A stretch of DNA of 64,000 nucleotides from Alloascoidea hylecoeti (GCA_001600815.1 BCKZ01000003.1:1103474-1167473); one strand, 5' to 3'; shown: positions 20,438 to 64,000, counted from the first letter of the stretch. Program-made: numbers and translations. The notes: generated by a model not told the origin, from the sequence alone.

Positions 20438-22102
20438 TTAACGTAATGAAAAACCTTTTCTTGATTTTGAATTTCTTTCTTCAGATAATCTAGCACTTTC
20501 CAATTGAGATTTTTTCTCTTCTAATAATCTTAATTGTTTAGTTAATTTATCCTTCATTTCTTTATGTCTAGCAAATAATTCAGCTTCAGATTTCTTTAAT
20601 TTAGCTTCCTTTTCAGCAACCTTTTGCTCAAAAACATTCTTCATTTCAGCTTCCATTTTAGTTAATTTAGCATTATGCAAAGATTTTTCTTCTTCTTGTC
20701 TTAAAGTAGGATCAAATTCACGGAAAACAGTATTATCTTGTTCAATACCTAATTTTTGTAATTTCTCCCTTCTATAATTTTCATATAAAACATTTGCAGT
20801 CTTTTCTCTTAATTCTTCCAAATAATTACGAATTAACATTTGTCTTAATTTAATAAAATCACAATGTTGTTCATTATCAACTTCAATTGTACCCCATGGG
20901 TAAGTTCTACCTCTAACAACTCTACCATCAGCGGTTTTAACTTCAGTTGTAGAACCAACAACAGCAAATGGAACTTTTTGAAAGATATCATTGTTTTCAG
21001 TAACAGTATCTTCATCATCATTATCATATTTAGGAGGTTGGAAGATATCAATTTCTTGAGCAGTAATATCATCTAAAATAGTACTTTTGAAGTTATTAAT
21101 TTCCTCATCAGTTAAAATATCAGATTTAGCAATGACTGGGATCAAATTAACTTTTTTATGTAAGGATTTCATTGCAGCTATATCTAATGGCTTAAGAGAG
21201 TGACCAGTTGGCTCAATAAAATAAACGCAAGCATGGATTCTATTATCAGTGACGGTAGTTCTATTAACTTTTGATTCAGCCTCCAAATATTCATCAAAAC
21301 GTTGCTCAATATTTTCAACAATTGGAGTCCAAGAATCTGTATTATTAATGAAATCACCAAATCCTGGAGTGTCAACGACAGTTAAGTGTAATCTAACGCC
21401 ATTTTCTTCTAAATTGGCAGAAACGGTTTCGATAACTACAGTTTTTGGTATTTCTTCGGCTGGATCACGGGGAGGCTTTGGTTCATATAGCGCCTGACCA
21501 AATAACGTATTTACCAGAGTAGATTTTCCCAGACCACTTTGTCCTTTAGAGAATGTTAGTAACTGAAGCAAAATGACATTATAATTAAGTTGTTTCCAGG
21601 ATAAGTTCCAAACTATAAGTTGCTACTAATCGCGTATTTTGAGTATTTTGAGTATTTTGAGTATTTTGGCTGGGACACAAAAAGCAACCTAGTAGAGATT
21701 CAACAAAACAAGATATTCAGTACTTACCAACAACCATTATATTTAAATTGAAGCCTCTTTTAATGGACTTTCGATGCCACTGATTTGGCAAGTTTGCAAA
21801 ACCCACATAACCATTTAACTTTTTGATGATAATTTTGGCTAATTCGGGGGATACCTGTGTTGATGATTGTCGTGGAATCGGGGAGGAAGTAGACGAGACT
21901 CTGTCAAAGTCCATTAATGGTGACTCGACTAAATAAATATATTAGTAAAAGATGTAGAAATAAAAATAGAGAGCGCTTATGACGAGGGTCGAGACGGGAC
22001 ATAAACATTTCACACCCCGGCTAATGACCGGCCGAAAGATCTGACACGACAAAAGCGGTCAGGGAGGGGAACGGGGGACGGGAACATACCGGAAGTAGAC
22101 AT
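20438..22102 (-). CDS. CDC3: Septin Cdc3; exons 22102-22090, 21928-21728 and 21543-20438
   Basis: [20 protein letters not shown]-loop [28 protein letters not shown]-terminal coiled coil ending RKGFSLR. Introns GTATGT..TACTAAT..TAG and GTAAGT..TACTAAC..AAG restore the frame. Confidence 0.93.
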
Positions 22103-25274: not shown

Positions 25275-26870
25275 TCATGGTGTTATTTTTTCTCTGCCTA
25301 TTACAGTAAGATCCACCAGAGAAACATTAAGCTTGTTTCCTATTTTATAAGTTTCAAATTGAATTTTTAAGGTACCAATACCTCTAACGCTACCAACGTT
25401 ACCCACATAGTTCTTCAACAAACCAACGGAGACGCTATTTTCAGGATTTATGAATTTTTTTATGTTCTCCCCTGAAGTTGGTTGATCTGTGGTCTTTAAA
25501 AAGCAACCGGCTGCCCTTATAATGATATCTGATACATGTGTAAGAGTCGACAAATTACTATTTAAATTGAACCAAACATAACCATTTGAGTACTTTGCAA
25601 TTGAATCCGGTAAAAATATGAAATCCCTATTGTCTCGGATTATTTTTATTAAATTATTCCATACTTTCAAAGGAATTCCAAACGATTGTAATTTAGGACA
25701 GGCAAAATTCTTGGGATCCTTTGAACAATAAATTATTATATCTGAAACAAAAAAAGAATCCAATTGACTCCCCTCAGGATACCTAACTCCTAACTTAAAT
25801 ATTTCCGTAGGTTTTAAACTTCCTTTAGGTTTAGAAGTATCTGAACTATTTATATCCTTTAAGCTTGGAGTGGCTGTTATAAAATACTTATCCATCTTCG
25901 GGTTGTCTGGATAAAAAACACCTCTTAGTGTTGGCAGAATTTTGTTATTTTTATATTTAACCAAATAAACATCACTTTTTAGAACTACCACTGTTGGTTG
26001 TTGCTGCACAGATTCACCGGGGGAAGATTGAGAAGCTTGTATATTAGTTTGAGTAGTTCGAGGGTTAAGCTCGCACTTAATAACATTTCCGACAATGCCT
26101 CCTGGCTGGTTAACAGCCGAATTAACAATATCTTTTTTATCGTTTACGTTTATAACTGAGTTATTGGGTGGAATCGACTTTTGATTGTATGTTGTCTGAG
26201 TGAGGTTCATAGAAAATGGGCCAGATTCACTGGTAGATGAACTAACACTACTTGAACTATCATCGCTATAATCATCCATACGTAAGATGTCATAATCGTT
26301 CAATTCTGAATCTTGATCATAATCAAATAACAAATTATTTACATGCTTGGGTATGTCACTTAGCTCATTCTCGAGTTCATTATTAATGTCGATCTTTCTA
26401 TAACTTAATTTCGTACTATTCTTAACATTTTTCTCGATCAAAAGAATTGTTTCTTCGTATGACTTCGAACTTTCTTTTGCAGTGAGCCATATATTCCAAA
26501 GTTCTGGAGAATCTTTTAACCAATAAGGAAGATAATAATTCATTTTTACAAAATCGGGAATACATTCACCAATTGAATCAGAAAGCTTGAAAACTTGATT
26601 AGCTCGACGATTGAAACTTTCGAATGCATGCTGAGAAAATGAAAGATCAATCCTTTCGTCTAGTAGACAAATGGTCATAGAGAGAATCAAGCTTTTAGTG
26701 GTCTTAGATATATTATCCTTGGAAAAGTTCGAGTCTGAGCTCAAAAATGAAGTCGATTGCAATGGTTTCGATGTTCTTGCAATGAGAGAAACAGTCTCTT
26801 TAATCTCTTCTAATTCTCGAATTAACCCCAATAAAAGTTCATCTGTAGGTAAGGCAGAATCAGCAGACAT
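25275..26870 (-). CDS. Orphan protein, copy A: N-terminal domain resembling Ty1/copia Gag capsid (UBN2-like), acidic/Ser linker and unknown C-terminal domain
   Basis: Intact 531-aa ORF and tandem paralog of 27486-29033. The Gag resemblance (FESFNRRANQVFKLSDSIGECIPDFVKMNYYL...PELW...KSYEETILLI) is pattern recognition only. Confidence 0.75.
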   Translation of the reverse strand: MSADSALPTDELLLGLIRELEEIKETVSLIARTSKPLQSTSFLSSDSNFSKDNISKTTKSLILSMTICLLDERIDLSFSQHAFESFNRRANQVFKLSDSIGECIPDFVKMNYYLPYWLKDSPELWNIWLTAKESSKSYEETILLIEKNVKNSTKLSYRKIDINNELENELSDIPKHVNNLLFDYDQDSELNDYDILRMDDYSDDSSSSVSSSTSESGPFSMNLTQTTYNQKSIPPNNSVINVNDKKDIVNSAVNQPGGIVGNVIKCELNPRTTQTNIQASQSSPGESVQQQPTVVVLKSDVYLVKYKNNKILPTLRGVFYPDNPKMDKYFITATPSLKDINSSDTSKPKGSLKPTEIFKLGVRYPEGSQLDSFFVSDIIIYCSKDPKNFACPKLQSFGIPLKVWNNLIKIIRDNRDFIFLPDSIAKYSNGYVWFNLNSNLSTLTHVSDIIIRAAGCFLKTTDQPTSGENIKKFINPENSVSVGLLKNYVGNVGSVRGIGTLKIQFETYKIGNKLNVSLVDLTVIGREKITP

Positions 26871-27485: not shown

Positions 27486-29033
27486 CTACTGCTCATTTAT
27501 TATTATATTTACACTGCTTGTTATTGTAAGACCAACAAGAGAAACATTAAGCTTGTTTCCAGTGTTATACGTCTCGATTTGAATCTTTAAGGTACCAATA
27601 CCTCTGACGCTACCAACTTTAACCAAATAGTCCTTCAACAAACCAACGGATGCGCTATTTTCAGGTTTTATGTACTTTTGTATTTCCTCCGCTGAAGTTG
27701 GTGGGACTATAGTCTCTAAGCTCAAACTGCATACCCTTATATTGATATCTGACACAGGCTTAATATTAGACTTATTCAGATTGCTATCTGAATTGAACCA
27801 AACATAATTATCTGTTCTCTTTGATATTGAAACTGTTGTATCTAAAAACTCAAATCCTCTACATTTTCGGATCATATTTATTAAATTATTCCACTGTTTC
27901 AAAGGAATTCCAAAATATTGTATTTTTAAAGGATGGAACAAACTCTTGGGAATTGGAGAATAAATTATTACATCTGAAACAAAAAAAGAATCTAATTGAC
28001 TCCCTTCGGGATATTTAACCCCCAGTTCATATATTTTTATAGGGATAAGAGATCCAGTACCAAGTGAAGCATTTGAACTATTTATATCCTTTAAGCTTGG
28101 AGTGGCTGTTACAGAATACTTATTCATCTTTGCGTTGTCTGAATAGAAAACACCTTTCAGTGTTGGGAAAATTTTGTTATTATGATTCTTAACCAAATAA
28201 ACATCACTTTTTAAAACTAAGCCTGATGGTTGTTGCTCTAGGGAAGATTGGGTAGTTTGGGTAGTTTGAGTAGCCTGAGGCTTAAGGTCATCTTTAGACT
28301 TCATACCATCTGTGGAAGTACTTCCTTGGCGATTAGAACTAGTATTAACAATTTTATTTGTATTGTTGAAATCTGATTTATTGGGTTGGTTCTGGTTAAA
28401 CTTAATGCTACTTGAACTACCATCGCTATAATCATCTAAAGGCGAGATATTATGATCAGGTGAATCTGAATCATGATCACCATCAAATGACAGATTATTA
28501 TCATGCTTGGATATTTCACCTAGATCCTTCTCGAGTTCATTATTAATGTCGATCTTTCTATAACTTAATTTCGTACTATTCTTAACATTTTTCTCGATCA
28601 AAAGAATTGTTTCTTCGAATGACTTCGAACTTTCTTTTGCAGTGAGCCATATATTCCAAAGTTCTGGAGAATCTTTTAACCAATAAGGAAGATAATAATT
28701 CATTTTTACAAAATCGGGAATACATTCACCAATTGAATCAGAAAGCTTGAAAACTTGATTAGCTCGACGATTGAAACTTTCGAATGCATGCTGAGAAAAT
28801 GAAAGATCAATCCTTTCGTCTAGTAGACACATGGTCATAGAGAGAATCAAGCTTTTAGTGGTCTTAGATATATTATCCTTGGAAAAGTTCGAGTCTGAGC
28901 TCAAAAATGAAGTCGATTGCAATGGTTTTGATGTTCTTGCAATGAGAGAAACAGTCTCTTTAATCTCTTCTAATTCTCGAATCAACCCCAATAAAAGTTC
29001 ATCTCCAGGCGATGGGGCAGAATCGATAGACAT
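27486..29033 (-). CDS. Orphan protein, copy B (tandem paralog of 25275-26870)
   Basis: ATG at 29033 (MSIDSAPSPGDELLL..) aligns with the start of copy A. Bases 28528-29003 are nearly identical to 26368-26843. Confidence 0.75.
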   Translation of the reverse strand: MSIDSAPSPGDELLLGLIRELEEIKETVSLIARTSKPLQSTSFLSSDSNFSKDNISKTTKSLILSMTMCLLDERIDLSFSQHAFESFNRRANQVFKLSDSIGECIPDFVKMNYYLPYWLKDSPELWNIWLTAKESSKSFEETILLIEKNVKNSTKLSYRKIDINNELEKDLGEISKHDNNLSFDGDHDSDSPDHNISPLDDYSDGSSSSIKFNQNQPNKSDFNNTNKIVNTSSNRQGSTSTDGMKSKDDLKPQATQTTQTTQSSLEQQPSGLVLKSDVYLVKNHNNKIFPTLKGVFYSDNAKMNKYSVTATPSLKDINSSNASLGTGSLIPIKIYELGVKYPEGSQLDSFFVSDVIIYSPIPKSLFHPLKIQYFGIPLKQWNNLINMIRKCRGFEFLDTTVSISKRTDNYVWFNSDSNLNKSNIKPVSDINIRVCSLSLETIVPPTSAEEIQKYIKPENSASVGLLKDYLVKVGSVRGIGTLKIQIETYNTGNKLNVSLVGLTITSSVNIIINEQ

Positions 29034-30376: not shown

Positions 30377-31959
30377 TTAAAGGCAAAAAAGTAATTCCAA
30401 ATTTCCACGCCCGAGAATATCATCCTTTAAGTTACAAGCGACTTTATATTTTCCCATTTCAAGCTTTATTGATTCATTTTTATTTAAAATTGGTTCGACT
30501 GTTTCCATGAAGGCATAATAAATATTATGTTTTCTATCAAGTTGAAATCCCATAAGTACTGAAATACTACAGAATGCATAGATTAACAATAATGCGAAAA
30601 TTCCTTGTTGTCTTGCAATTGGAATCATTTTTTCTGGCATTGTTGATAGAAAAGAATGAAATGGTCCATAAATTTGATTATTATAGAATCGGTTTGCAAA
30701 ATGTGAAAGTTGAAGTATAGCTTCTCGATAAATATTTATTTTTGATTGTTCCATACCTACCAACTTTGAGTATTCATCAAGTAGTTTGTTTAATCTATCA
30801 ATAAAAGGAAATAATATAATTGAGGGTCTTGGCCACGGGGGATACATTAATACCAAACCTTTCATAACTGGTTTAACTTTATCATCAATTTCATCAACAC
30901 CCATTACCATCGTTTTTGGCTTCATTTCAGGTGACAGTAAAGAATAAACTGCATTCGCTCCACGAATTATTGCTATAAAGTCAATACATGAACCATCTCT
31001 TGAAACTAATGGTACCATGGTAGGATGATGAGAAGTATATGCAACAAGTAAACAATTGCAGAGAAATAAAGACATGATATCAAAAGTCTTACTATTTTTC
31101 TCTACTCTTTTTAAATCTTCCACGAATAATTTTAACGAGCTATTGTATAGTTTCTCTGATTCATATTGCAGAGTGCCTGCTGAAAATTCAGTCCTTTTAT
31201 TCCAATAATAAAGAGTTGATACAGCTTTTAGGGCGATTCTTATTGACAGGGAATTATGTGCATATGATGGGAAGACACTAGACCAAATACTCCACCAACT
31301 TACGGTAGAGGTGTTATCTATAACAACTCCAACTCTATAAATCAAACGATTTACGCCAACTGAATCACTTTGGTATTCAAAAAGGTTAATTTTAGATGCT
31401 GAGGTAGGGAAGACATAATCATATTGGGTATTGATTTCTGGTTGAGTGTTACATAATCCCATTTGGGTGGCCACCTGATTAAAACTAATTGTCTCATTGG
31501 TTTCATTACAAGGCAAGTTGTAATTATAATAGAGATAATTCATCGGAGAATTTAAACGGTAGGGATGATTATACCAAACTTGCCTCTTCATGGCTGGTTT
31601 TGGCGAGATCTTCACAACTTTATTACTAGTTTCGAGATATCTCTTTCTTTTGATCTTTTCGGGTGGAATATAAATGCATTCCCTCTTTGAACCTAGACAA
31701 TGTAGGCAATACGGTTTGGTTTCATCACACTATACCATATATTAATGAGTCTCAAAGGTTAATATAATTAATTATAATATGTATACACACTCAAAACTTA
31801 AGCTCAAGGAAAAATTGTATGAACTTATTAACATACCTTAATTCTAATTCGTTTGCAGTTCAAGCAGCCTGTTCTTGATCTTTTATGAACTGGTTTATTT
31901 TTAACCTTTTTTGAATTCGTAACTAAAGAAGTATGCGTAGAAGTTGAATCCTTTTCCAT
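30377..31959 (-). CDS. Zn(II)2Cys6 transcription factor with Upc2-type C-terminal domain; exons 31959-31837 and 31729-30377
   Basis: HKRSRTGCLNCKRIRIK|CDETKPYCLHCLGSKRECIY, with the cluster split by a GTATGT..TAG intron. Exon 2 is in frame with the 412-aa ORF (..DFIAIIRG..). Confidence 0.88.
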
Positions 31960-45513: not shown

Positions 45514-47994
45514 TCATTTCCTTTCTGAAAGCCATTCATTAGCATCAGTAAATTGTTTAACAGTGGCTGCTTTAATTAATCCTTCTTTCCCTGCAAAATT
45601 AATAATATCAGTTATAATATTAAAGAATTGAAAACTTCTCTCTAAATATGTTAAAGCTTGAGGAGATCCAATACTATTATTTTCTGCAACTCTTTCCTTT
45701 GATAAACGAATAACATTCTTGAAAGCATCGGATGATAAATTGGTTGTTGATGATTTTTCTAGTTCAATATTAGATAATACAACAGTTTCTTCTAAATAGT
45801 TATGAATAACAATTGCCATTACGGTGTTTGGAGCTACATCAGCAAATGGAATCTTGGTAGCAAGGTTACTCCAGTCATTATTAGTACGGTCTAATCTGTT
45901 GACCTCTTCATTGGCAAGTAATGAAACAGTACTTGCTTCAATTAAATTTCTTAAAGTAGATCGTAATAACTCAATAAATGATCGGAATGCAAGTAATGAT
46001 TGATTCAAAGGTCCATAATAATTAACAGGTTTCTGTTTTAGAGATAAGAAACCACCAAATCTAGAAATTAAAGTAACATATTCTTTTTCTTTTGTTGTAC
46101 CCTTCTGTGGTTCACCTGGATATTTTGGAGTTAATGGTTGATCTAATTTTGGAATAGCATTATCTTTCAATAAACTAACAGCGAGAATTATTGGTTCAAT
46201 AAATGATTTATCCTTTTCTGATACTAAATTAAGGCCATGTGCTAATACTTTACCCCATGGTGTTAGTTTATGATCATTATTATTCACAAATCCATAAAGA
46301 TCAAAAGCACGTAATAATGCTGTATTAAGAATTTCTTCATCTGTTTGTAACAATGGTGGTCTGGCAGCAGGACTAACAGGTTTCGTTGAAATTGTCTTTT
46401 TTCTAAAATCATCATCTTTTTCGAGTTTTGAAATGAGACCAGGTAATCCTTCTAAAATTGGTAGATTGTTTAATAAAATATTATCACGTATAACCCAAGA
46501 TCGTACTTTACTATAAACCGTTGGTGTAACTCTATGAATCAATTCAGTTTCTTGTCTTGGATCATACCAAGCTGATTGATGAATTTTTTTGACTTGATAA
46601 TATCGTGCTAAGAACTCTGTTATTAAACTAAGAGATTTTTCTCTAATTTGATTTAATGATTTTAAATATTTCTTATAATCATCACTTCTACCACCATCTA
46701 AAGGAGCTTTATCAAGATATTTACCAGTTGTGATTGCTTCTAATAAATGTGTGTCGATAATTCCTCGAGATAGGTAAAAGTATAACTCATGTGGTAATCT
46801 TTGACCGATAAATGTGTGTGTATCATTTGGAAGCTTTACCTTTGGATCGTTAGGTGGTTCTTCACTATTACTACCATTAGTTGTGGTAGCTGGAGATGCA
46901 ACTGAAGTTGAAGAAGGAGGCTTACTCCCTCCTGGAACAGTAAAAGTTTCTGTTTCTTCTTCTGCTGAAAGTTCTACTCTACCATTTTCTTTTAACACTG
47001 GTACAAATTCAATTGATGAAAACGCCTGTCTATACTTATCAGCATATGTTGTATCGTTCGAAGATAAAATAGTACCATAAATATTACCACCAGAAAATAT
47101 TATATCCTGTGCACTCTTAATTGGATATGAATATCCATTCTGTTCCAATAATGGGAAAGTAGTATTAATAAAATCAAATCCTGATGCAACAGCAGCTTCA
47201 TTAAATTGTTCTTGGTTAAATCCCAAATCATTAAAAAGGTGTCGTTTAGTTAACCATTTAAAAACATGATCAGGAAAATCAAGATATACAATAATTCTAT
47301 CAACATCAAGTAAAAGTAATTCAGATGGTCCATAAATAGCATCAACATAACTCTCCTTATGGTTATAAAGGTATGCCAATTGTGCCCATGAGCTATAAGG
47401 AGCTATCATATACTCCACATTGTTAGATGTTAAAAACCTGATCAAGGCTGGAATATAATCACGAGAAGTCACTGATTCACGATCCCTAAATGTATCTGGA
47501 CCATAACCAGTATGGCGTTCAGAAGCGTAATAAGATTCCCAAGTTCTTTCTCTCCATTGCACAGCCTGATCCTGTTCAGCTAATGGTTTATTTTGAGAGG
47601 CTACCTTCAATCCAGGAAATACAAAAACAGGAGTGATTGCATGATGGCTAAGTGCAGCCAAATCAGACTCAATTAGCGTAATCAAACTAAGAGGTATACC
47701 ACCAGTTGCGTCAAGGTAAGGTTCTTTCTTAGCACTAAGAAGGCGTGAGAAGTAGTATTCAACATCGATACCAAGACGGGCACCTTTTAAAACCTCGAAT
47801 GATAGAGAGCGAAGGAGATTTTTTTCACTGAGATAATGATCCAACGATTTAACTAGGTGGAGAAAATGGGAATGTTAGGTAAAGTTGAAATTTGATGTAA
47901 TATCAAATGAAATGAAGAATCGTTCTTTAAAACAGAATGAAAAAAAATTGCGTTCCTAGTTGATATCTTGAGATATATACTACATACTTGCCAT
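45514..47994 (-). CDS. MKT1: Mkt1 (XPG-like PIN domain with MKT1_N/C); exons 47994-47988 and 47852-45514
   Basis: Spliced start MAIKSLDHYL via GTATGT..CCTAAC..TAG; LGIDVEYY, PVFVFPGL, YMIAPYSSWAQLAYL, IGQRLPHELYFYLSRG. Confidence 0.92.
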
Positions 47995-48621
47995 TATTGT
48001 AGAAAAGGTCAAATGTTAACAATTGTGTATATTAATATTTTACTTTTGCGAACCAAGACTGGAAGGAGGAGCACTTTTGATGTTGACAGAATGCCCATAC
48101 ACACGACGTTGTGTGATATATGCTAACTTTCTACACCTGTTCTCCACTTACAATCAACTTTCTTATAAATTTTAAATAAATATATCGGCTCATCCCAATC
48201 TTTCTTATATCCCATTTTAAAAAAAAGTGATTGAACTTTTGGGAATTCCTCCTTTTAACCGAGCATTTTTGCAAAATCTCTTATTTGTGGGTCTGGGTGG
48301 TTTTAGACTCAACCCCGGGTAAAAGTATACAAAACTTCCGGAACATGTGTGTAATATCTTATCTGTAAGTCTTAGGATTAAAGATGGGAAATATTACTGC
48401 GTTATAATATTAATGATATTTTAATCAGACTAGTACTTCATTGTATTTAGTTAAAAGTCAGCTTTTAGGCCTTACATCCATATGATACAACATCAACTTA
48501 CAATTGCGATCGAAGTTTACAATCTGGTATAATTTCAACTAAATCTCAATTACTTCTTAAGGTTGATAATAACCTCCGGTTTACAATTTTTAGTTGTTTT
48601 AAAATATTAATACATATGAAA

Positions 48622-51600
48622 CTAAGTCCTATGACTAAATACAAAAAAGTTCTTAATTGTCTCAATTTTCTTTAATCTTTTTAATGATTTGATTTCCTTC
48701 TTTACTCTCAATGTATCAGGTTTTCTTTCTCCTAAGAGACTTTCGTATCCTTTACATGATTCATCTAACAAAATCACGGCTTTGGTATATTGTCCTAAAC
48801 GACTATAGACAACCCCTAGTCTTTCTTTTATTTTAAAGATATCAAGTAGGTTTTCGGTCAATTTATCTGCATACCCTGTAATCACCCCTTCCAATAATTG
48901 TTTGGCCTCCTTATATCTTCGTTGGTGAACATATACCCCAGCAATATGATAGTTGATTGTTAAGGGTAGAATAAATTGGTTCACCTTAAACCGATTGCAT
49001 CTCATCAGTGCACTTTTATAATGTTTCAAGGCTTCATCATAATCTTTAACTTTATCAAATGCCATACCCATATTATCTATGACGGAAACTGTATTGGGAT
49101 GATTTGGTCCAAATAGTTCCTCATATCCTTTCACAGATTTTTGAAAATATTCCATTGCTCTCTTTGGTTGCTTCAATTCTGTATAAACTAGTCCAATTCC
49201 ACTCAATGAATCCAACTTTGCAGAATTCTTATAACCTAAGCTATCAAATCCTTCTAAACTACGTTCCAAAAACTTTTTAGCGGTGTCATAATCGCCTCGT
49301 CTCCAGTATGTAAATCCAATATCTTTTATAATTCTTAATGTAGTTGGATGTTTATCCCCTAAATATTTCTCTCTATTAGTAAGTGCTTGTTTCAGGCTTT
49401 TGAGGGCTGAGTTATATTCACTTTGCTTTAAGTATGCTTGCCCTATATTTTCAAAAATTGTCGAAACATTCGGAAGTCTAGAGCTTGTAGAATCTTCATA
49501 ACCATCAAGAGCCTCTGTGAATAGTTTGAGCGCCTTTCGGGTATGCCCCATTTCATTGTATAAAGTCCCCAGAGTTATTAATGCAGCCAAAGTATTTGGA
49601 TGTGTTTTGTTAAATAATCGATTAAACTCATAATGGGCTCTTTTAAGAAGCTCTTCTGCTCTCATATATTCGGATCTAATGAGATATATTTTTCCAATGT
49701 TTAACATTGCAAATGCTAAATCCGTACTTTGTGGAATATTTTCAAGCCCCTTTAATGCACGCTGTAACATAATCATTGCTTTATCAAATTCTTCTAAACG
49801 ATGGTAGCTTATCCCAGCTACCAATACACAATGAAGAGTCTTTGTATGAGTTTCACCCAATGAATCTTCATAACCATTAATCGCTTGTAATGATAATTCT
49901 AATGACCTTTTATAATCTCCAAGACTTTGATAAATTGATCCAAGATCTCCAATAATTTTTAAAACCTTTGGATGACCATCACCAAAAATCTTTTTTTGAT
50001 ATGTTAATGTTTTCTCTAATCGAGTTTTAGCTTCTTCATATTCTCCAAGTCTCCATTCTAACATTCCTAAACACTCAATGGCTTTTAAAGTAGCTGGGTG
50101 CTCTTCTCCATATAATTCTTCAAACATGGAATTTGCTTTTATTAATAATGTATATGATTTTTTATATTCCCCTAATATTATATAAAGTTCACCTAAACTT
50201 AATAAAGTGTCAATAGTATCAGGGTTATCATCTCCAGAAACCAATCTATAACTCTCAAGAGATTCTGTTAATAACGTCATGGCATCCTTGTAATTCCCAA
50301 TATCTTTATAAAGAAGTCCGAGAGTTTTCCTATCTGTTATTGTTTCTAGATGAGAATCACCCAAGTGTAAAGTCGATCTTGCAACAACATCTTGAAGAAG
50401 CATTAAAGATTGCTCGTAATTCCCAAGATTTTTATATAAAGATCCTAAATATCGTTGAACTGCAAGAGATGCTGGATCATGTATACCAGAGTTATGTTCG
50501 CGTCCTTTTAATGCTTTTTTGTATAACTCGAGTGCTTCGGTATACCTTCCAAGGAAGTAGTACGATGATGCAAGCCCTTCCTCTGCTTTTATTGTATTAA
50601 TATTATTCGTTTCATATTCATAAATTATTCTATAACGGTTCAACAGTTTTTCGAAGATTATTGAAGCCTGATGATACAAGCACAGTTGTGCCAAGCAAGT
50701 AGCTATTTTTCCAAGTCCATGTAATAATTCCTCATCCCAAGTCTCTGAAAATATTTCGTCAGCGACTTTTAAAACAGCCACTATGTGTGGATATATACTG
50801 ATCCAGTATCTTCTTTCGGTGGTGGGATCACCTGTTGATAAAATTTCAGAAATAATCATCACTGCTATTCTTCCATACAATAACGTTTGCGTTTCATCTA
50901 ATCGTGACCTAATCCATCTATGAATAACCGGATGTACCATTAGTATTAGGGTTTTATCTTCGGAATTGCTGGTAATATAAGCTAATGAATATATTTGCAA
51001 TTCATGGACTGCATTATCGTATAAGCTTTCATCTTCTAACCATCCAATAAACTTGCCACCATGTTTTTGAACTAGTGGCTTTGTGATATTGAGGTTATGA
51101 AAGAATGAAAATAAATTTAAAACATGCCAAGCGTTTGCAGATAAGCTTTTATATGGAACCAAAAATGTTAAATCAATGGCATCTTTTTGACCGATTAAAT
51201 TTTTTTGGAAAAGAAATTGATCATCTTGTTCTAGTTTTTCCTTATATTTAGTAAATGAACTCAGATTCGCAGAAATATTAGCACCAACAATTTCTAAAGC
51301 CATTGGATAATTATTCAGCATTTGAGAGATACCTTTTGCTGCACTTAATTCATCAGCGCTTAAATCAGATTTCATTTGATCAGAAGCTTTTAATAATAAT
51401 TCAACACCAGTATCAATTCCTGGATCATCAACTTTTATACAAGTGCCAATACTCCTGGCAAAAAAATTACTACCTTTAGATCTAGAGGTTATGATCACTT
51501 TACCCCAGTCACAACTGGGGAATCGAAATGTCTCTTTTAATGTTTTATAGTTAAAGTTCGGATCGTTCATATTATCAACAATAATAAGCCAATTCTTATT

Positions 51601-52551
51601 CTTTGGGTTTGCGAACCAATAATGTATTGCTTTCGGTAAAATATCATCATAATATTTGTCTTCTTTGATACCAAAAGCCCAATCCATAACACCTACCAAA
51701 ATCCCTCGCGAATCATTGTTGATCTTTAATTTTCCTTCATTATCCACAAGCCATGGCATTCCGAACTTTTTACCAATCTTGGCATAATCATCTGTTTCGA
51801 TTTTAGAAATATAATATGCAACGATTTTTTCCATTGCATCCCTAATACTACTCCTTAAACTTTGTTCATCATGAGCATCTATCCAAAGAATACTATCATA
51901 TATATCCTTTTTGGCACACCTAAATGCATATTCCAAAGCGATCTGCGATTTACCAATGCCACCTATTCCTTCTAGTATTATATAAGTTCTCCCACTGGTT
52001 TCATTTAATAATGAAGACATATATTCTAATATTTCTTCCCTTCCAGAAAAGTTCATATTTTGTAAAAATGGGATAAGACACCCCAACTTAAAATCATCTT
52101 CCCAAGGAACATCCTCTTGAACATAAAGCAGATCATCAACGAATTCTATGAACTTATCTGTATATTCTACAACATCAGTTGCCATTGTTGTCAAATAAGT
52201 CCTATCTTTTTCCCATTCTGTTCGTTTAACAAAATGTGGAGTATTTGAATTATATTCAATATTTCCATTAAGATCTGCATCGGCATAATAGATGAATAGC
52301 TTATTAGCTTTATGCATTCTAATCTGAACTGGTCTTAATAGAGTTATTGCCATTTTTGCATCATCTTCATCAAGCATAGCAATTTTTTCTTTATATTTAT
52401 CCAACCTATAGGAAGACTCGGAAAAGCTTACAAATAGGTCGATTATTCGGTTATCCATTTGTCTTCCTTCATTAAACCTTGCGTTAACATTACTAACACC
52501 AGCCATTACCAGTTCCAATAGTTTAACAACATCGAGATTTGCGCTAGACAT
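48622..52551 (-). CDS. Fungal NLR-like STAND protein: helical HeLo-like N-terminus, NB-ARC and TPR array
   Basis: FSGREEIL, Walker A GIGGIGKS, Walker B WLIIVDNMND, VIITSR, YPMALEIVG, MVHPVIH. From about aa 610 there are many ~42-aa TPRs with G.xHP.TL linkers. Intronless. Confidence 0.93.
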   Translation of the reverse strand: MSSANLDVVKLLELVMAGVSNVNARFNEGRQMDNRIIDLFVSFSESSYRLDKYKEKIAMLDEDDAKMAITLLRPVQIRMHKANKLFIYYADADLNGNIEYNSNTPHFVKRTEWEKDRTYLTTMATDVVEYTDKFIEFVDDLLYVQEDVPWEDDFKLGCLIPFLQNMNFSGREEILEYMSSLLNETSGRTYIILEGIGGIGKSQIALEYAFRCAKKDIYDSILWIDAHDEQSLRSSIRDAMEKIVAYYISKIETDDYAKIGKKFGMPWLVDNEGKLKINNDSRGILVGVMDWAFGIKEDKYYDDILPKAIHYWFANPKNKNWLIIVDNMNDPNFNYKTLKETFRFPSCDWGKVIITSRSKGSNFFARSIGTCIKVDDPGIDTGVELLLKASDQMKSDLSADELSAAKGISQMLNNYPMALEIVGANISANLSSFTKYKEKLEQDDQFLFQKNLIGQKDAIDLTFLVPYKSLSANAWHVLNLFSFFHNLNITKPLVQKHGGKFIGWLEDESLYDNAVHELQIYSLAYITSNSEDKTLILMVHPVIHRWIRSRLDETQTLLYGRIAVMIISEILSTGDPTTERRYWISIYPHIVAVLKVADEIFSETWDEELLHGLGKIATCLAQLCLYHQASIIFEKLLNRYRIIYEYETNNINTIKAEEGLASSYYFLGRYTEALELYKKALKGREHNSGIHDPASLAVQRYLGSLYKNLGNYEQSLMLLQDVVARSTLHLGDSHLETITDRKTLGLLYKDIGNYKDAMTLLTESLESYRLVSGDDNPDTIDTLLSLGELYIILGEYKKSYTLLIKANSMFEELYGEEHPATLKAIECLGMLEWRLGEYEEAKTRLEKTLTYQKKIFGDGHPKVLKIIGDLGSIYQSLGDYKRSLELSLQAINGYEDSLGETHTKTLHCVLVAGISYHRLEEFDKAMIMLQRALKGLENIPQSTDLAFAMLNIGKIYLIRSEYMRAEELLKRAHYEFNRLFNKTHPNTLAALITLGTLYNEMGHTRKALKLFTEALDGYEDSTSSRLPNVSTIFENIGQAYLKQSEYNSALKSLKQALTNREKYLGDKHPTTLRIIKDIGFTYWRRGDYDTAKKFLERSLEGFDSLGYKNSAKLDSLSGIGLVYTELKQPKRAMEYFQKSVKGYEELFGPNHPNTVSVIDNMGMAFDKVKDYDEALKHYKSALMRCNRFKVNQFILPLTINYHIAGVYVHQRRYKEAKQLLEGVITGYADKLTENLLDIFKIKERLGVVYSRLGQYTKAVILLDESCKGYESLLGERKPDTLRVKKEIKSLKRLKKIETIKNFFVFSHRT

Positions 52552-52582
52552 GATAATTAGTATTATTTAAGCCGATGTATAT

Positions 52583-52622
52583 TGTGAAATTATCGATATG
52601 AATGTGAAATTATCGATATGAA
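52583..52622. repeat. Perfect 20-bp tandem duplication just upstream of the NLR start
   Basis: tgtgaaattatcgatatgaa x2. Confidence 0.9.
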
Positions 52623-53649
52623 TGTATTGATTATTAAGGTGAGTTTTAATACTAATAGAATTTAACGTGAGACAAAACTTAAAAAGAAGAGAAAATCATT
52701 TTGTGACTAGTTACTAGTTAAGACCTAACACCAATAAGGATCGAAAAAATTTCTTCATATAACCTAAACCATTTTCGTTAATATAAATATAGATTTAATT
52801 ATAATTATTCTAATATATTTTAAATTTGGCAACAAAATGTGTTGAACACAGGCTCAATAAATCTATATGTTAAAAACACAACTGTTTTATTTTAGAGAGA
52901 GCCTGTAAAACGTATATGACTGTGGCAGTTTCCATCCCAATTGATACCCTTGATGATCAGAAGAGGAAGAAAAAGAATATTTATTACACCTGGTTATCTA
53001 ATCAGGAAATATTACGTAGTCATATGTATTTGAGAAGGAGAATAAGCATAATTACTCGGACTGTATCACGTGTATACTTTTCCTAATAAGTCAATTGATT
53101 ATAATTATAATACCAGTAGTTGCGGTAAAGACAGTTAGCTATCTTATGTTCATGATCATGAATTGAATATCTCGAATTTATGTGATCATTTTCTTAAGAT
53201 GTACCAGTATAAAAATAAATTTAAGTACTTCGAAGTTAGAATAGGGAACTATTGCAATTGGTGCAAATATACACAAAGAATTCTTCGGCTGTGAAAAACA
53301 AAAGAATGCATTTTGAATTTTAATAATCACAATACATTAGTTCATTAGGTGAGAAGAATGCTTTTTGTAAATTTTGAATGAGAAGTCCGTGTAATCAATT
53401 AGTTTCTGAGATGGCTACCTCATTATACATAATCGGCAAATTTGACGAAACGAATTCGTCAAAATACACAAAACAGTCAATTAGCTTCTTAAATGAGAGA
53501 TACCTTTCTTCATTGGAGCTAGGCACTTAATATGCAAAAGAAATTCTAGATTTGATTTTTAGGGCTTGGTAATTTTGTCAGTCGTGATAATACATTGATC
53601 ATTTGAATTTTACTTTATATTCGGTTACTAGAATATAATTTCGTTGTAG

Positions 53650-54059: not shown

Positions 54060-54130
54060 GCGTTAGTGGTTTAGCGGTAAAATTCTTCGTTGCCATCGAA
54101 GAGCCCCCGGTTCGACTCCGGGCTGACGCA
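54060..54130 (+). tRNA. tRNA-Gly(GCC), intronless
   Basis: Acceptor GCGTTAG/CTGACGC+A, anticodon arm CTTCG-TTGCCAT-CGAAG, T-arm CCCGG-TTCGACT-CCGGG, followed by a T5 terminator. Confidence 0.97.
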
Positions 54131-55559: not shown

Positions 55560-56799
55560 ATGCTTCTGAAATTTATAGGCATTACTTTTATCATTAGCTT
55601 TGCTTCTGCAGATTCTTGTGCTGAGTTGTACTATCAATGTGGTGGTAAGTAATCTCCTTTCACAATTTCAATCCTACTGTTGAAATATTAATATGAATTC
55701 GCAAATTAACAATTCGCTAGGTTCAAACTGGTCGGGTGCTACATGCTGTGCTACTGGTACTTGCTCATCTCAAAACCCATATTATTATCAATGTGTTGCA
55801 ACTTCAGGTGCTACTAACGTAGATGCTGCTTCTGCAGCCGCTACACAACAAACTTCAACAGTTGCTGTTCAGCAAGAGACCACAATCTCTAGTACCATTC
55901 AGCAGGAAGCAACAACAAGTGTAGTTGTTCAACAGCAAGAAACAACGCAAGCTGGAGATAGTTATGGTACTACTCAATATGGAGAAGATATTAGTTATTC
56001 TACCATGGCTGCTAAACAGACAACGGTAGTTGAAGAATCAGAGAATGCGGAAACAACTGCAACAATTCAGGTACAAGCTGATACGACGTCAGCTACCAGT
56101 ATAACCAACGCTGTAAAGGATATTACAGTTTCTTCTGATACAACTGCACAAGCTGCTGCAACTACAACTTCAGAGGCTGTTGCCACTACATCATCATCAA
56201 ATGGTGTTACTACATCTGCTGCTACCACTGAAGTTGACAATGGAACTTCAAGCTTCTCTCTCACTGCTTACCCAGGCGAGGACGAATATGCTGATTGTAC
56301 TGAAGTCTATGCTACATGTGGTGGTAGTGCCTACTCTGGACCAACATGTTGTTATTATGGAAGCTACTGCTCAACAGTAAATGAAGCTTATGCTCAATGT
56401 TCTCCAACTTCAATTGTCAATTCTGTTGAAACTGCCGCTGTTACACAAGATGGTGCTGCATCTTCAAGCCGGGATTGGTATTATGGTCGCGGTACCTATT
56501 GGGGACCTTCAGATGGTAATGCTTGTCAAATGAAGAATGGTTACAATGATGAATCTATGGTTGTTGCTATTGGTATTGATACTTATGAAGCAGGTAATTT
56601 AAGCAGCACTTACGTTAGTGACTACTGTGGTAGAAAAATTAGAGCTTGGTATGGAGAGAAATATGTTGATGTTACTGTGATNGATGCTTGTGGTTCGTGT
56701 GACAAGTATAGTCTTGACTTTTCACCCAGTGCTTTTAATACACTGGCATCATCTAATGATGGTGTTATTGGTATTGTTTGGACATTCACTGATGAGTAG
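55560..56799 (+). CDS. Secreted CBM1-linker-CBM1-DPBB (expansin/loosenin-like) protein, copy 1; intron 55645-55720
   Basis: Signal MLLKFIGITFIISFASA; CBM1 CAELYYQCG|GSNWSGATCC..NPYYYQC; second CBM1 YATCGGSAYSGPTCC..AYAQC; RlpA-like DPBB GRGTYW..NAC..VVAI..CGRKI..VTVxDAC..LDFSPSAF. Confidence 0.9.
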
Positions 56800-58089: not shown

Positions 58090-59229
58090 ATGCTTCTGAA
58101 ATTTATAGGCATCACTTTTATCGTTGGCTTTGCTTCGGCAGATTCTTGTGCTGAATTATACCAACAATGTGGTGGTAAGTATTAGACATAAAAATATATT
58201 ACTATTATTTTTAACATTAACAATCCTAATTCGTAATACTTAGGCTCAAGCTGGACGGGTGCTACATGCTGTGCTACTGGTACTTGCTCATCGCAAAACT
58301 CATATTATTATCAATGTGTTTCAACTTCAGGTGCTACTAACATAGATGCTGCTACACAACAAACTTTAACAGTTGCTGTTCAGCAAGAGACCACAATCTC
58401 TAGTACCATTCAGCAGGAAACAACAACAAGTGTAGTTGTTCAACAGCAAGAAACAACGCAAGCTGGAGATAGTTATGGGACTACTCAATACGGAGAAGAT
58501 ATTAGTTATTCTACCATGGCTGCTAAACAGACAACGGTAGTTGAAGAATCAGAGAGTGTAGGAACTACAGCAACTTCACAAGCTGCTGCAACTACAACTT
58601 CAGAGGCTGTTGCCACTACATCGTCATCAAATGGTGTTACTACATCTGCTGCTACCACTGAAGTTGACAATGGAACTTCAAGCTTCTCTCTCACTGCTTA
58701 CCCAGGCGAGGACGAATATGCTGATTGTACTGAAGTCTATGCTACATGTGGTGGTAGTGCCTACTCTGGACCAACATGTTGTTATTATGGAAGCTACTGC
58801 TCAACAGTAAATGAAGCTTATGCTCAATGTTCTCCAACTTCAATTGTCAATTCTGTTGAAACTGCCGCTGTTACACAAGATGGTGCTGCATCTTCAAGCC
58901 GGGATTGGTATTATGGTCGCGGTACATATTGGGGACCTTCAGATGGTAATGCTTGTCAAATGAAGAATGGTTACAATGATGAATCTATGGTTGTTGCTAT
59001 TGGTATTGATACTTATGAAGCAGGTAATTTAAGCAGCACTTACGTTAGTGACTACTGTGGTAGAAAAATTAGAGCTTGGTATGGAGAGAAATATGTTGAT
59101 GTTACTGTGATNGATGCTTGTGGTTCGTGTGACAAGTATAGTCTTGACTTTTCACCCAGTGCTTTTAATACACTGGCATCATCTAATGATGGTGTTATTG
59201 GTATTGTTTGGACATTCACTGATGAGTAG
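58090..59229 (+). CDS. Secreted CBM1-CBM1-DPBB protein, copy 2 with shorter linker; intron 58175-58243
   Basis: Same signal peptide and intron position as copy 1. The 3' ~650 nt are nearly identical to copy 1. Confidence 0.9.
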
Positions 59230-60846: not shown

Positions 60847-61869
60847 ATGACTACTAAGAAAATCACTTTCTCTCTTAACTGGGAAGCTACTCCTTATCAT
60901 ATTCCAATTTACCTGGCTCAACATCGTGGTTATTTTAAAGAGAATGATTTGGACATCGCAATTTTGGAACCGGGAAATCCTTCAGATGTTACTGAACTCA
61001 TTGGATCTGGCAAGGTTGACATGGGATTAAAAGCCATGATTCATACCCTAGCTGCTAAAGCCCGTGGTTTTCCAGTAACCTCTATTGGTTCTCTATTGGA
61101 CGAACCGTTTACTGGTGTTCTATACTTGGAAGGATCTGGAATCACCACTGATTTTCAATCATTGAAAGGTAAAAGAATTGGTTACGTGGGTGAGTTTGGT
61201 AAAATTCAATTGGATGAATTGACTAAACATTACGGAATGACTCCTGATGATTATATTGCAGTTAGATGTGGTATGAATGTTGCTAGATATATCATAGAAG
61301 GAAAGATCGATGGTGGAATTGGTATCGAATGTGTTCAACAAGTTGAGCTTGAAGAATTTTTGAGATCTGAAGGTCGCGATATTAATGAAGCTAAAATGTT
61401 GAGAATTGATAAACTCGCTGAATTAGGATGCTGTTGTTTCTGTACTATTTTGTACATTGCAAATGATAACTTCTTAGCCGCAAATCCTACTGTCGCTCCA
61501 AGATTCATGAAAGCAATTAAGAAGGCCACCGACTTTATTATTCAGGAACCAAGGGATGCATATGATGAGTATATTGCTATAAAGCCACGTATGGCATCGG
61601 TTTTGAACCAAAGAATATTCGAAAGATCATTTGCTTATTTCTCAGAGTCTTGTTATAATGTTCACCGTGATTGGAGAAAAGTTACTAATTATGGAAAAAG
61701 ATTGGAAATTGTTCCTCAAGATTTCAAATCTAACTATACCAATAAATATTTGTCATGGCCTGAACCAGAAGAAGTTAAGGATCCTTTGGATGCTCAAAGA
61801 CAAATGTTTGATCATCAAGATCTTTGCAAGTTTAATGGTGGTTGCAGAAGATTAAAACTTTCTTCATAA
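60847..61869 (+). CDS. THI5: HMP-P synthase (Thi5/Nmt1 family)
   Basis: [49 protein letters not shown]. Confidence 0.97.
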
Positions 61870-63558: not shown

Positions 63559-64000
63559 ATGGCGACTGCAACTATTGATGTCGTTAGACTACTAGAGATA
63601 GTACTAAATGGTGTTAGTGCTATTAATACCAAGGTTAAAGAAGCAAGACAGATGGATAATCGTGTAATCGATTTGTTGGTGAGCTTTACTGAATCTTCTT
63701 ATCGTTTAGAAAAATATAGGACGAAAATTGATAATTTAGATGAAGATGATGCAAGAATGGCTATGAACTTACTAAGGCCGGTCCAAACGCGAATAGTTCA
63801 GGCAAATGAATTATTTTTATATTATTGTGGTGAGGATTTGGACCCAAACACAACCGATGATGCCGATTTTGAATCAAAGGCGCCAAGATTTGTAAAACAG
63901 ACGAAATGGGATAGGGATAGAGAATATCTAACAACTATGGCAGCTGATGTTGTTAAATATACAGATAATTTCATAAAATTTATGGATGATCGGCAAAAAG
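63559..64000 (+). CDS. 5' part of a paralog of the NLR N-terminal (HeLo-like) domain; truncated by the window edge
   Basis: MATATIDVVRLLEIVLNGVSAINTKVKEARQMDNRVIDLLVSFTESSYRLEKY...LLRPVQTRI...PRFVKQTKWDRDREYLTTMAADVVKYTDNFIKFMDD aligns residue by residue with aa ~1-140 of the 48622-52551 protein. It is not in the ORF track because no stop is reached. Confidence 0.9.
   Translation, partial: MATATIDVVRLLEIVLNGVSAINTKVKEARQMDNRVIDLLVSFTESSYRLEKYRTKIDNLDEDDARMAMNLLRPVQTRIVQANELFLYYCGEDLDPNTTDDADFESKAPRFVKQTKWDRDREYLTTMAADVVKYTDNFIKFMDDRQK

Follow-up and report, generated by a model that had tools for sequence, protein, structure and literature searches.

Does a budding-yeast genome carry an intact NOD-like receptor (NLR), and what would such a receptor do there? 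The question is raised by a single gene at positions 48622..52551 of a 64,000-nucleotide stretch of Alloascoidea hylecoeti DNA (GCA_001600815.1, BCKZ01000003.1:1103474-1167473), which we refer to in its entirety as “the window”. An initial annotation, made from the sequence alone, had read this gene as a complete fungal NLR with a HeLo-like N-terminal domain, a central NB-ARC domain and an array of tetratricopeptide repeats (TPRs), in a yeast-like genome. On balance, and with modest confidence, we favor the reading that the gene encodes an intact and native switch of the STAND (multidomain signal-transduction ATPase)/NLR type, composed of NB-ARC domain, DUF7779-like winged helix and TPR array, in a member of the Saccharomycotina, and that its output is most likely death or membrane attack.

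Such a gene would be out of place according to the literature. In the excerpts of Dyrka et al. 2014 (PMC4986451) considered here, no NLR hits are given for 38 Saccharomycotina genomes and NLRs are tied to multicellular, filamentous growth. Excerpts of later papers describe NLR-less genomes as largely Saccharomycotina (2017, PMC5658179), state that no NLR occurs in unicellular yeasts (2022, PMC9815663) and call NLRs absent from yeast genomes (2025 review, PMC12881547). Within these excerpts, the four papers agree with the premise of the initial annotation that NLRs are described as absent from yeasts. The excerpts of PMC9815663 also present the HeLo-, Goodbye- and MLKL-like four-helix bundles as the largest effector superfamily, related to MLKL. 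A search of open-licence PubMed Central and bioRxiv texts brought up no paper that describes a Saccharomycotina NLR.

Results

The gene and its domain architecture

The claim of a complete coding sequence stands: the gene is a single uninterrupted frame. The stop-to-stop frame around the open reading frame (ORF) is 48625..52566, and just five codons are open between the preceding stop and the ATG. This leaves little doubt about the start, and the frame requires no intron. The gene is also intronless among intron-bearing neighbors, as had been proposed, since MKT1 and the septin gene both show short 5' introns that can be read from the sequence. The parts of the gene are as follows.

48622..52551 (-), whole NLR coding sequence: one ATG-to-stop ORF, 1309 aa + stop, no intron
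52111..52551 (-), N-terminal domain (N-domain), aa 1-147: predicted four-helix bundle, lineage-restricted, without Pfam family (AlphaFold2, Pfam, HMMER)
50737..52110 (-), nucleotide-binding and oligomerization domain (NOD), aa 148-605: of NB-ARC type, followed by helical and winged-helix portions (Pfam, Rhizina alignment, feature clusters)
51946..51969 (-), Walker A / P-loop GIGGIGKS, aa 195-202: also present in both Rhizina proteins, P0002 and P0003
51562..51588 (-), Walker B LIIVDNMND, aa 322-330 (LIIVD, aa 322-326): aligns with LLLIDNID of P0002 and with the corresponding motif of P0003
51478..51498 (-), VIITSRS, aa 352-358: aligns with VIITSR of P0002; sensor-1 / RNBS-B-like
51283..51309 (-), YPMALEIVG, aa 415-423: aligns with LPLAINQAG of P0002; GLPL-like
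50887..51150 (-), DUF7779-like winged-helix region, aa 468-555: Pfam 21.3 bits, below the cut-off of 27
50914-50937 (-), VHPVIHRW, MHD-like, aa 539-546: located in the translation, inside the winged-helix region
48667..50736 (-), TPR array, aa ~606-1295, TPR_10/TPR_12 type: Pfam; repeats diverged at the DNA level

We assign the protein to the NLR class, and accept the tripartite architecture of N-domain, NB-ARC and TPR array claimed for it, with high confidence. Walker A (GxxxxGKS/T) and Walker B (hhhhD) are intact, and the downstream NB-ARC motifs that the initial annotation had reported were all located, i.e., VIITSRS, YPMALEIVG and VHPVIHRW. Pfam finds TPR_12 (E 1.4e-101) and TPR_10 (E 7.1e-80) in 10 stretches apiece of the full protein, which confirms the long TPR array. 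The NB-ARC profile (PF00931) is matched at the border of significance: it scores 22.4 bits on the full protein, slightly short of its cut-off of 23.5, whereas a scan restricted to aa 1-620 reaches 24.8 bits (E 1.5e-5) and so narrowly passes. DUF7779, scanned on the full protein, stays at the sub-threshold score listed above. A language-model feature search with aa 148-605 placed NB-ARC/nSTAND/DUF7779 clusters at the top (score 0.95-0.98). Together with the C-terminal TPR repeats, the folded 147-aa domain that precedes the NOD gives the protein the layout of the fungal tripartite NLRs of Dyrka et al. 2014, and Pfam, relatives and feature clusters all point the same way.

Among the scanned NOD relatives, all 10 reach the NB-ARC cut-off and 8 of the 10 carry DUF7779 at E <= 0.001. 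Their N-termini are modular, with TIR, helix-turn-helix (HTH), kinase, Goodbye and DUF3892 domains. The NLR is colinear from aa 153 with the Rhizina undulata protein P0002 (807 columns, 27% identity, E 8e-79), which itself scores 34.6 bits for NB-ARC and 34.0 bits for DUF7779. Upstream of the gene, a perfect 20-base tandem repeat (2.2 copies) at 52583-52625, 32-74 bases 5' of the start codon, could be a promoter or 5'-leader element.

The locus and its host

Composition and assembly both tie the gene to its surroundings. Its GC content is 0.332 and its third-position GC content (GC3) 0.247, with neighbors' GC3 at 0.09-0.29. Its relative synonymous codon usage correlates with that of eight pooled neighbors at r 0.86, and neighbors outside the pool give 0.76-0.87. 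The locus occurs in four sequencing runs from three samples and three studies, namely a wood decay metagenome (X1), two runs labeled organism A from 2016 (X2, X3) and one labeled organism A from 2023 (X4); X1-X3 are possibly the source of the window itself. Over 48000-53200, contigs of the four runs show no indel in the NLR gene, the sole difference being a C>T in X4 (51601), which falls on the third base of codon 317. In each of X1, X2, X3 and X4 the gene and the MKT1-side region share a single contig, and an X2 contig of 13,380 bases covers 48000-51897 and extends past 48000. The gene is native, and contamination is unlikely.

The host was placed with two genes of the window. Among the matches listed for the septin gene, the best named ones come from Geotrichum, Yarrowia, Trichomonascus, Magnusiomyces and Sugiyamaella (65-68% identity), with Pezizomycotina close behind (64-66%). 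We built a septin tree from 37 rows picked from the best 120: 9 named Saccharomycotina, 13 Pezizomycotina, 13 further top matches, one basidiomycete outgroup and the window. A branch with support 100* splits the 13 Pezizomycotina from 23 rows that include the window and the 9 named Saccharomycotina, and the window is sister (97*) to a six-row set with Babjeviella, Cyberlindnera, Ascoidea and Saccharomycopsis. Forcing the window to group with Pezizomycotina costs 42.2 log-likelihood units and is rejected by the approximately unbiased (AU) test (p-AU 9.6e-5). In an unrooted MKT1 tree of 24 rows, the 7 Pezizomycotina are set apart from the rest (99*), Lipomyces adjoining them, and the window branches off first in a set (100*) to which Brettanomyces and Scheffersomyces belong.

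The introns tell a similar story. As read from the sequence, the 5' intron of MKT1 (47853-47990, -) follows ATGGCAA and runs GTATGT ... TACCTAAC ... AG, the gene being otherwise colinear over 776 aa. The septin gene (21570-22090, -), with borders likewise read from the sequence, has two short 5' introns, the second with a perfect TTACTAAC. The introns of both genes start with GTATGT or GTAAGT and have a TACTAAC-like branch site near the 3' AG, which is the pattern of budding-yeast introns. The host thus very likely lies inside Saccharomycotina, and the budding-yeast lineage suggested by the initial annotation is upheld by the septin and MKT1 trees. Judging from these two genes, it appears to have split off later than Lipomyces and yeasts of the Dipodascales type, but earlier than the groups of Pichia, Candida and Saccharomyces type. 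That part of the tree is also where small orders, Alloascoideales and Sporopachydermiales among them, are placed.

The NLR core itself says less about ancestry. The nearest NOD relatives among the matches listed are two hypothetical proteins of Rhizina undulata (Pezizomycetes), P0002 and P0003, at 27-31% identity; this list holds only proteins that have 5-residue words in common with the query, and the named sources include few yeast proteomes. In a NOD tree of 21 rows, many of them on long branches, the window and the related protein P0062 (89) are sister to the two Rhizina proteins (94; both values unstarred), and a Streptomyces-type clade stands separate (100*). At just 27-31% identity, the tree does not discriminate between a transfer long ago and vertical inheritance with losses in other lineages. 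Recent horizontal transfer was considered and is made unlikely by native composition and by the saturated divergence of the paralogues described below.

The N-terminal domain

Homology to the Rhizina proteins begins only at aa 148-153, so aa 1-147 form a separate module. AlphaFold2 predicts a four-helix bundle for it, both without an alignment (mean predicted local distance difference test score, pLDDT, 76.0; five models 39-76) and with the four-sequence alignment A2, where 5 of 5 models agree (pLDDT 72-77, mean 76.8; predicted template modeling score 0.69). In the models made with A2, the helices span residues 3-28, 34-57, 62-90 and 106-146, with a disordered acidic loop before the last. The helical N-terminal domain of ~140 aa that had been noticed at the outset is therefore recovered as a predicted bundle of aa 1-147.

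At E <= 10, Pfam gives nothing for the N-domain of the NLR (P0022) but a 15-bit chance row. Of the other family members introduced below, scanned at E <= 1, P0062 has no row and P0063 a single one of chance quality, and P0184 has none at E <= 0.1; HMMER's filters discard most matches above ~E 0.1. The same library does recognize the Goodbye domain of a NOD relative, P0007 (25.2 bits). When alignment A2 was compared with the Goodbye-bearing P0007 by hhalign, at the low power that its Neff of 1.4 allows, the NOD part alone was aligned, with a probability of 1.8%. A search of the ESM Atlas with aa 1-165 gave no usable match. By these comparisons the N-domain appears to be a new sequence family.

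Structure comparison was made with VIA-align against 48,161 representative chains and, separately, by re-ranking the best 987 chains of Foldseek. The tool itself notes that Z below ~13 is common for helical bundles, and every value that follows lies in that range. The coiled-coil (CC) domain of Rx (4M70) is matched over 107/107 and 111/112 residues (Z 11.6-11.8, root-mean-square deviation, rmsd, 2.8-2.9). IncA scores Z 12.1 against the better N-domain model. Further matches are the Sw-5b N-terminal domain (Z 10.5), the CC-R domain of NRG1.1 (7L7V, Z 9.2), MLKL (Z 8.9 and 8.8), AtMLKL3 (Z 8.4), a wheat resistosome chain (Z 7.4) and MLA13 (Z 7.1); the re-ranking adds the CC domain of NRC2 (8XUQ, Z 10.0) and MLKL 6ZZ1 (Z 9.2). 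HET-s/HET-S HeLo chains are absent from the 50 rows of each of the three VIA-align lists, which does not thereby exclude the fold. On these models the N-domain would be a general up-down four-helix bundle, a fold common to plant CC, RPW8, MLKL and HeLo domains; it may be CC/MLKL-like. That it acts as a cell-death or membrane effector, a proposal by analogy with those domains, we regard as tentative and somewhat improbable when taken by itself.

Of the motifs reported for the domain, SYRLDKY (aa 47-53) and the W-x2-DR-x2-L-x2-MA-x2-V string (aa 113-127) are present as described. Within the last-helix string, L120 is the sole residue invariant across the N-domain family. Helix 1 keeps LL-x-L-x3-G throughout the family. 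To us this bears, by eye only, a loose likeness to the MADA-type motif of plant CC domains.

A small family of N-domain genes

The N-domain recurs in few places, one of them within the window. In a HMMER search of 1.84 billion cluster representatives with aa 1-165, only 3 proteins were found at E <= 0.001. P0061 is the NLR gene itself in a 274-aa form, P0062 (423 aa) is 38% identical, and P0063 (170 aa, 31% identical) consists of the N-domain alone. Metagenomes of the Joint Genome Institute (JGI) scanned with the 4-sequence N-domain alignment gave 597 pattern matches, of which tblastn upheld 0. Two further features bear on the copies.

63559..63999 (+), second N-terminal domain copy (P0184): ATG start, runs off the window end; 60% identical to NLR aa 1-140
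51868..51903, 36-base word inside the NOD, aa 217-228, IYDSILWIDAHD: exact match in other genome copies (run contigs)

The second copy was found by tblastn (63559-63990, +, 60% identity over aa 1-140, E 1.6e-49). Compared over 143 codons, the two window copies have pN 0.218 and pS 0.693, giving a saturated dS of ~1.9 and a dN/dS of ~0.13, so the duplication is old and the N-domain is under purifying selection. Contigs from 4 of 4 runs break at 51868-51903, where word depth in X2 is 158.8 versus 60, and the word recurs with 2 differences on separate contigs of 1020-1173 bases; these observations point to more NLR-family copies in the genome. We read the NLR as belonging to a small and old family that is restricted to this lineage and has the 147-residue four-helix bundle as its hallmark.

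Genomic surroundings

The remainder of the window has its own character. Two tandem genes at 55693-56799 (+) and 58237-59229 (+) are 88% identical over 360 aligned residues, and each encodes a CBM_1 domain, the cellulose-binding module of fungi (E ~1e-10), and ends in a weak match to DPBB_1 (expansin/RlpA-like). Budding yeasts seldom have CBM_1; the pair fits the wood decay metagenome label of one run carrying window DNA. Another tandem pair, at 25275-26870 (-) and 27486-29033 (-), encodes proteins of 531 and 515 aa that are 68% identical and belong to no Pfam family, and it is adjoined by a further ORF without Pfam family (30377-31591, -, 404 aa). An ORF at 2913-4499 (-, 528 aa) has a DDE_1 transposase domain of the pogo/Tc5 type (E 4.6e-10). 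The window also holds THI5 (60847-61869), a gene for a major facilitator superfamily (MFS) transporter and a CAP-family gene, at low gene density, and the sole tRNA gene found in it, tRNA-Gly (GCC), lies at 54060-54130 (+), with the NLR on one side and the CBM_1 genes on the other. By its appearance the region is accessory or resembles a subtelomere. In the spacer toward MKT1, short pieces of 48191-48344 are found again on other contigs, with 2-3 differences; word depth in X2 is 96 versus 60, and one joint swaps 96 bases for 79 others. This segment looks like a dispersed repeat.

Comparison with known systems

The fungal NB-ARC/TPR NLRs represented by Rhizina P0002 and P0003 have the same domain order as the protein described here; the P-loop, Walker B, VIITSR, GLPL-like and MHD-like motifs; a DUF7779-type winged helix; 42-residue TPR_10/TPR_12 repeats; and an exchangeable N-terminal module. 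They differ in identity (27-31%), in their unrelated N-domains (~60 other residues in P0002, a DUF676 hydrolase in P0003) and in host, since the present NLR belongs, very likely, to the Saccharomycotina, where the excerpts of the 2014 survey (PMC4986451) give hits in 0 of 38 genomes. Bacterial TIR/NB-ARC/TPR proteins of Streptomyces (‘FxSxx-COOH system tetratricopeptide repeat protein’) have the same core of NB-ARC, DUF7779 and TPR_10/12, but their matches are weaker (E 7e-6 to 2e-4, 11-33% query cover), they form a separate clade (100*) and their N-terminus is a TIR domain.

On the side of the N-domain, plant CC-NLRs are likewise NB-ARC proteins that begin with a helical bundle. Their CC domains (Rx 4M70, NRC2 8XUQ), the CC-R/RPW8-like domain of NRG1.1 (7L7V) and MLKL (6ZZ1, 6UX8, 4BTF) resemble the predicted N-domain in having ~110-140 residues, four long up-down helices and a long loop before helix 4, with Z 8.8-11.8 (a range common for helical bundles) and rmsd 2.7-3.6 over most of the domain. 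They differ from it in sequence, with 4-9% identity and no profile match. HET-S HeLo, Helo_like_N, SesA and Goodbye are also helical N-terminal modules of comparable size on fungal NLRs; here 0 of 4 family members match one of their Pfam profiles, and hhalign gave no match to the Goodbye-bearing P0007.

Discussion

How might the protein work? We infer the following sequence of steps from what is well established for other STAND proteins with an NB-ARC domain, i.e., APAF-1, plant NLRs and the bacterial proteins of Avs/MalT type. The TPR array would hold the ADP-bound protein closed and would bind a ligand, either foreign or altered self. Binding would lead to exchange of ADP for ATP in the NB-ARC domain and hence to opening; contacts between NODs would then build an oligomer, and the clustered N-terminal bundles would provide the output. 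That output would most likely be membrane attack or regulated cell death, as for the bundles of plant CC domains, MLKL and HeLo, and this is the weakest step of the scheme.

A number of observations weigh against an intact, native switch with such an output. In the core, the best NB-ARC stretch covers profile positions 5-64 of 248 only, the P-loop part, in both scans, so the Pfam assignment is borderline; and when aa 148-620 were compared by sequence with all PDB chains, the best E was 0.92, i.e., chance level, which makes the NOD distant from every solved NLR. In the DNA, neither tandem repetition at TPR-unit spacing nor any near-identical units were detected; the units are diverged, unlike the fast-evolving repeats of allorecognition NLRs, and a search for hypervariable TPR units found none. 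The HeLo/HELL/SesA-type identity that the initial annotation had suggested for the N-domain found no support: the HeLo, HeLo-like, SesA and Goodbye Pfam profiles match 0 of 4 family members, hhalign yields no Goodbye match, and the structural neighbors at Z 9-12 are non-specific for helical bundles. In the structure check that it had proposed, Foldseek returned no PDB match at E <= 0.001 for either AlphaFold2 model. In the VIA-align lists, NLR and MLKL bundles are mixed with IncA, talin (R13), GCPII, THATCH, Cbl TKBD, dynactin, the gamma-tubulin complex and designed bundles. The first helix, described as amphipathic, is so only mildly: it is the most hydrophobic of the four but weakly (mean 0.15), and its hydrophobic moment (muH 0.30-0.37) is not above that of helices 2 and 4.

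Other observations of the same tendency concern the family, the assembly and the host. In the NOD of P0062, both the lysine of the P-loop and the aspartate of Walker B are gone. Two loose-end contigs beyond 51868-51903 have a consensus that translates as AL*YAFRSAR, with an in-frame TAA, so at least one further copy may be a pseudogene. Another public record gives the NLR gene as two pieces, P0061 (274 aa) and P0001 (aa 265-1309): at an A6 run (51823-51832, -, codons 241-243) the record differs by one base, P0061 continues in the +1 frame after aa 242, and the gene is consequently called as two proteins. This frame-shifted form was sought in the contigs of the 4 runs and 0 of 4 show it; the difference in the split record is a homopolymer error or a rare allele. 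The window has a long end branch (0.62) in the septin tree, and the host trees are two single genes analyzed by a quick method.

What else could the gene be? The same class of protein might use its N-terminal bundle as a non-lethal adaptor or regulatory domain and signal in the manner of bacterial TPR-STAND regulators, which we consider rather doubtful. The 0 of 4 family members linked by sequence to any death-effector family would be natural under that explanation, as would the adaptor and scaffold bundles among the structural neighbors of equal Z (IncA, talin R13, THATCH, Cbl TKBD), the non-lethal N-termini (HTH, kinase) of NOD relatives, and TPR units that are old and diverged rather than hypervariable. 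It has to contend with the fact that the full-length matches among NLR N-terminal domains are CC, CC-R and MLKL-type bundles. More ambitious, and in our view unlikely, is the proposal of a working CC-NLR-like death system kept since the ascomycete ancestor, in which the bundle would share a very remote ancestry with the executioner bundles of plants (CC/RPW8), animals (MLKL) and fungi (HeLo) and would kill by membrane insertion after NB-ARC-driven oligomerization. Still less probable is a decaying relic without function, whose frame merely happens to be open in a dwindling family. The degenerate P-loop and Walker B of P0062, the in-frame TAA of the loose-end consensus and the split record at the A6 run would suit a relic, but the 3927-base frame is open in a 33% GC genome with all catalytic motifs intact, dN/dS is ~0.13 between the two N-domain copies, and the contigs of 4 runs show no indel and a single difference, at a third codon position.

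Origin is a separate matter. An ancient horizontal transfer from a filamentous ascomycete (Pezizomycotina), e.g., in a shared wood habitat, instead of retention from the ascomycete ancestor, is a serious contender that falls somewhat short of an even chance. The nearest NOD relatives listed are from Rhizina undulata, to which the window and P0062 are sister (94, 89, unstarred); the excerpts of Dyrka et al. 2014 (PMC4986451) give no hits in 38 Saccharomycotina genomes; the one full-share run not labeled organism A is a wood decay metagenome; and the region looks accessory, with its tandem duplicates, DDE transposase and CBM_1 gene pair. Against this, identity to the nearest Pezizomycotina proteins is just 27-31%, composition and codon use are native, any transfer must be old given the saturated paralogue dS, and the sister relation to Rhizina is weak because the match list is word-limited and the named sources hold few yeast proteomes. 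Contamination or mis-assembly from a filamentous fungus, which the initial annotation had flagged as a possible undoing of its reading, gains something from NLRs being otherwise reported, in the excerpts of the literature, from filamentous fungi only. We give it almost no credence: native composition and indel-free contigs in four runs speak against it, and moreover the NLR sits between yeast-type genes on one 64-kb stretch, its composition is like that of its neighbors, single contigs bridge it toward MKT1 in X1-X4, and the window holds a second N-domain copy at a distance of 11 kb.

Conclusions

If a death system has indeed been retained from the ascomycete ancestor, unlikely as we hold this to be, NLR immunity would have been lost within Saccharomycotina and not at their base; should the host also be hyphal, that loss would track the switch to unicellular growth. 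The family would in addition offer a yeast-lineage model for resistosome-type death. On the reading we prefer, an intact and native switch, an NB-ARC/TPR family under selection inside Saccharomycotina is a counter-example to the repeated statement that yeasts lack NLRs. It makes testable when and why yeasts lost NLRs and whether their retention goes with hyphal growth, and the new N-terminal bundle family could be tried for death-effector activity in ordinary yeast expression systems.

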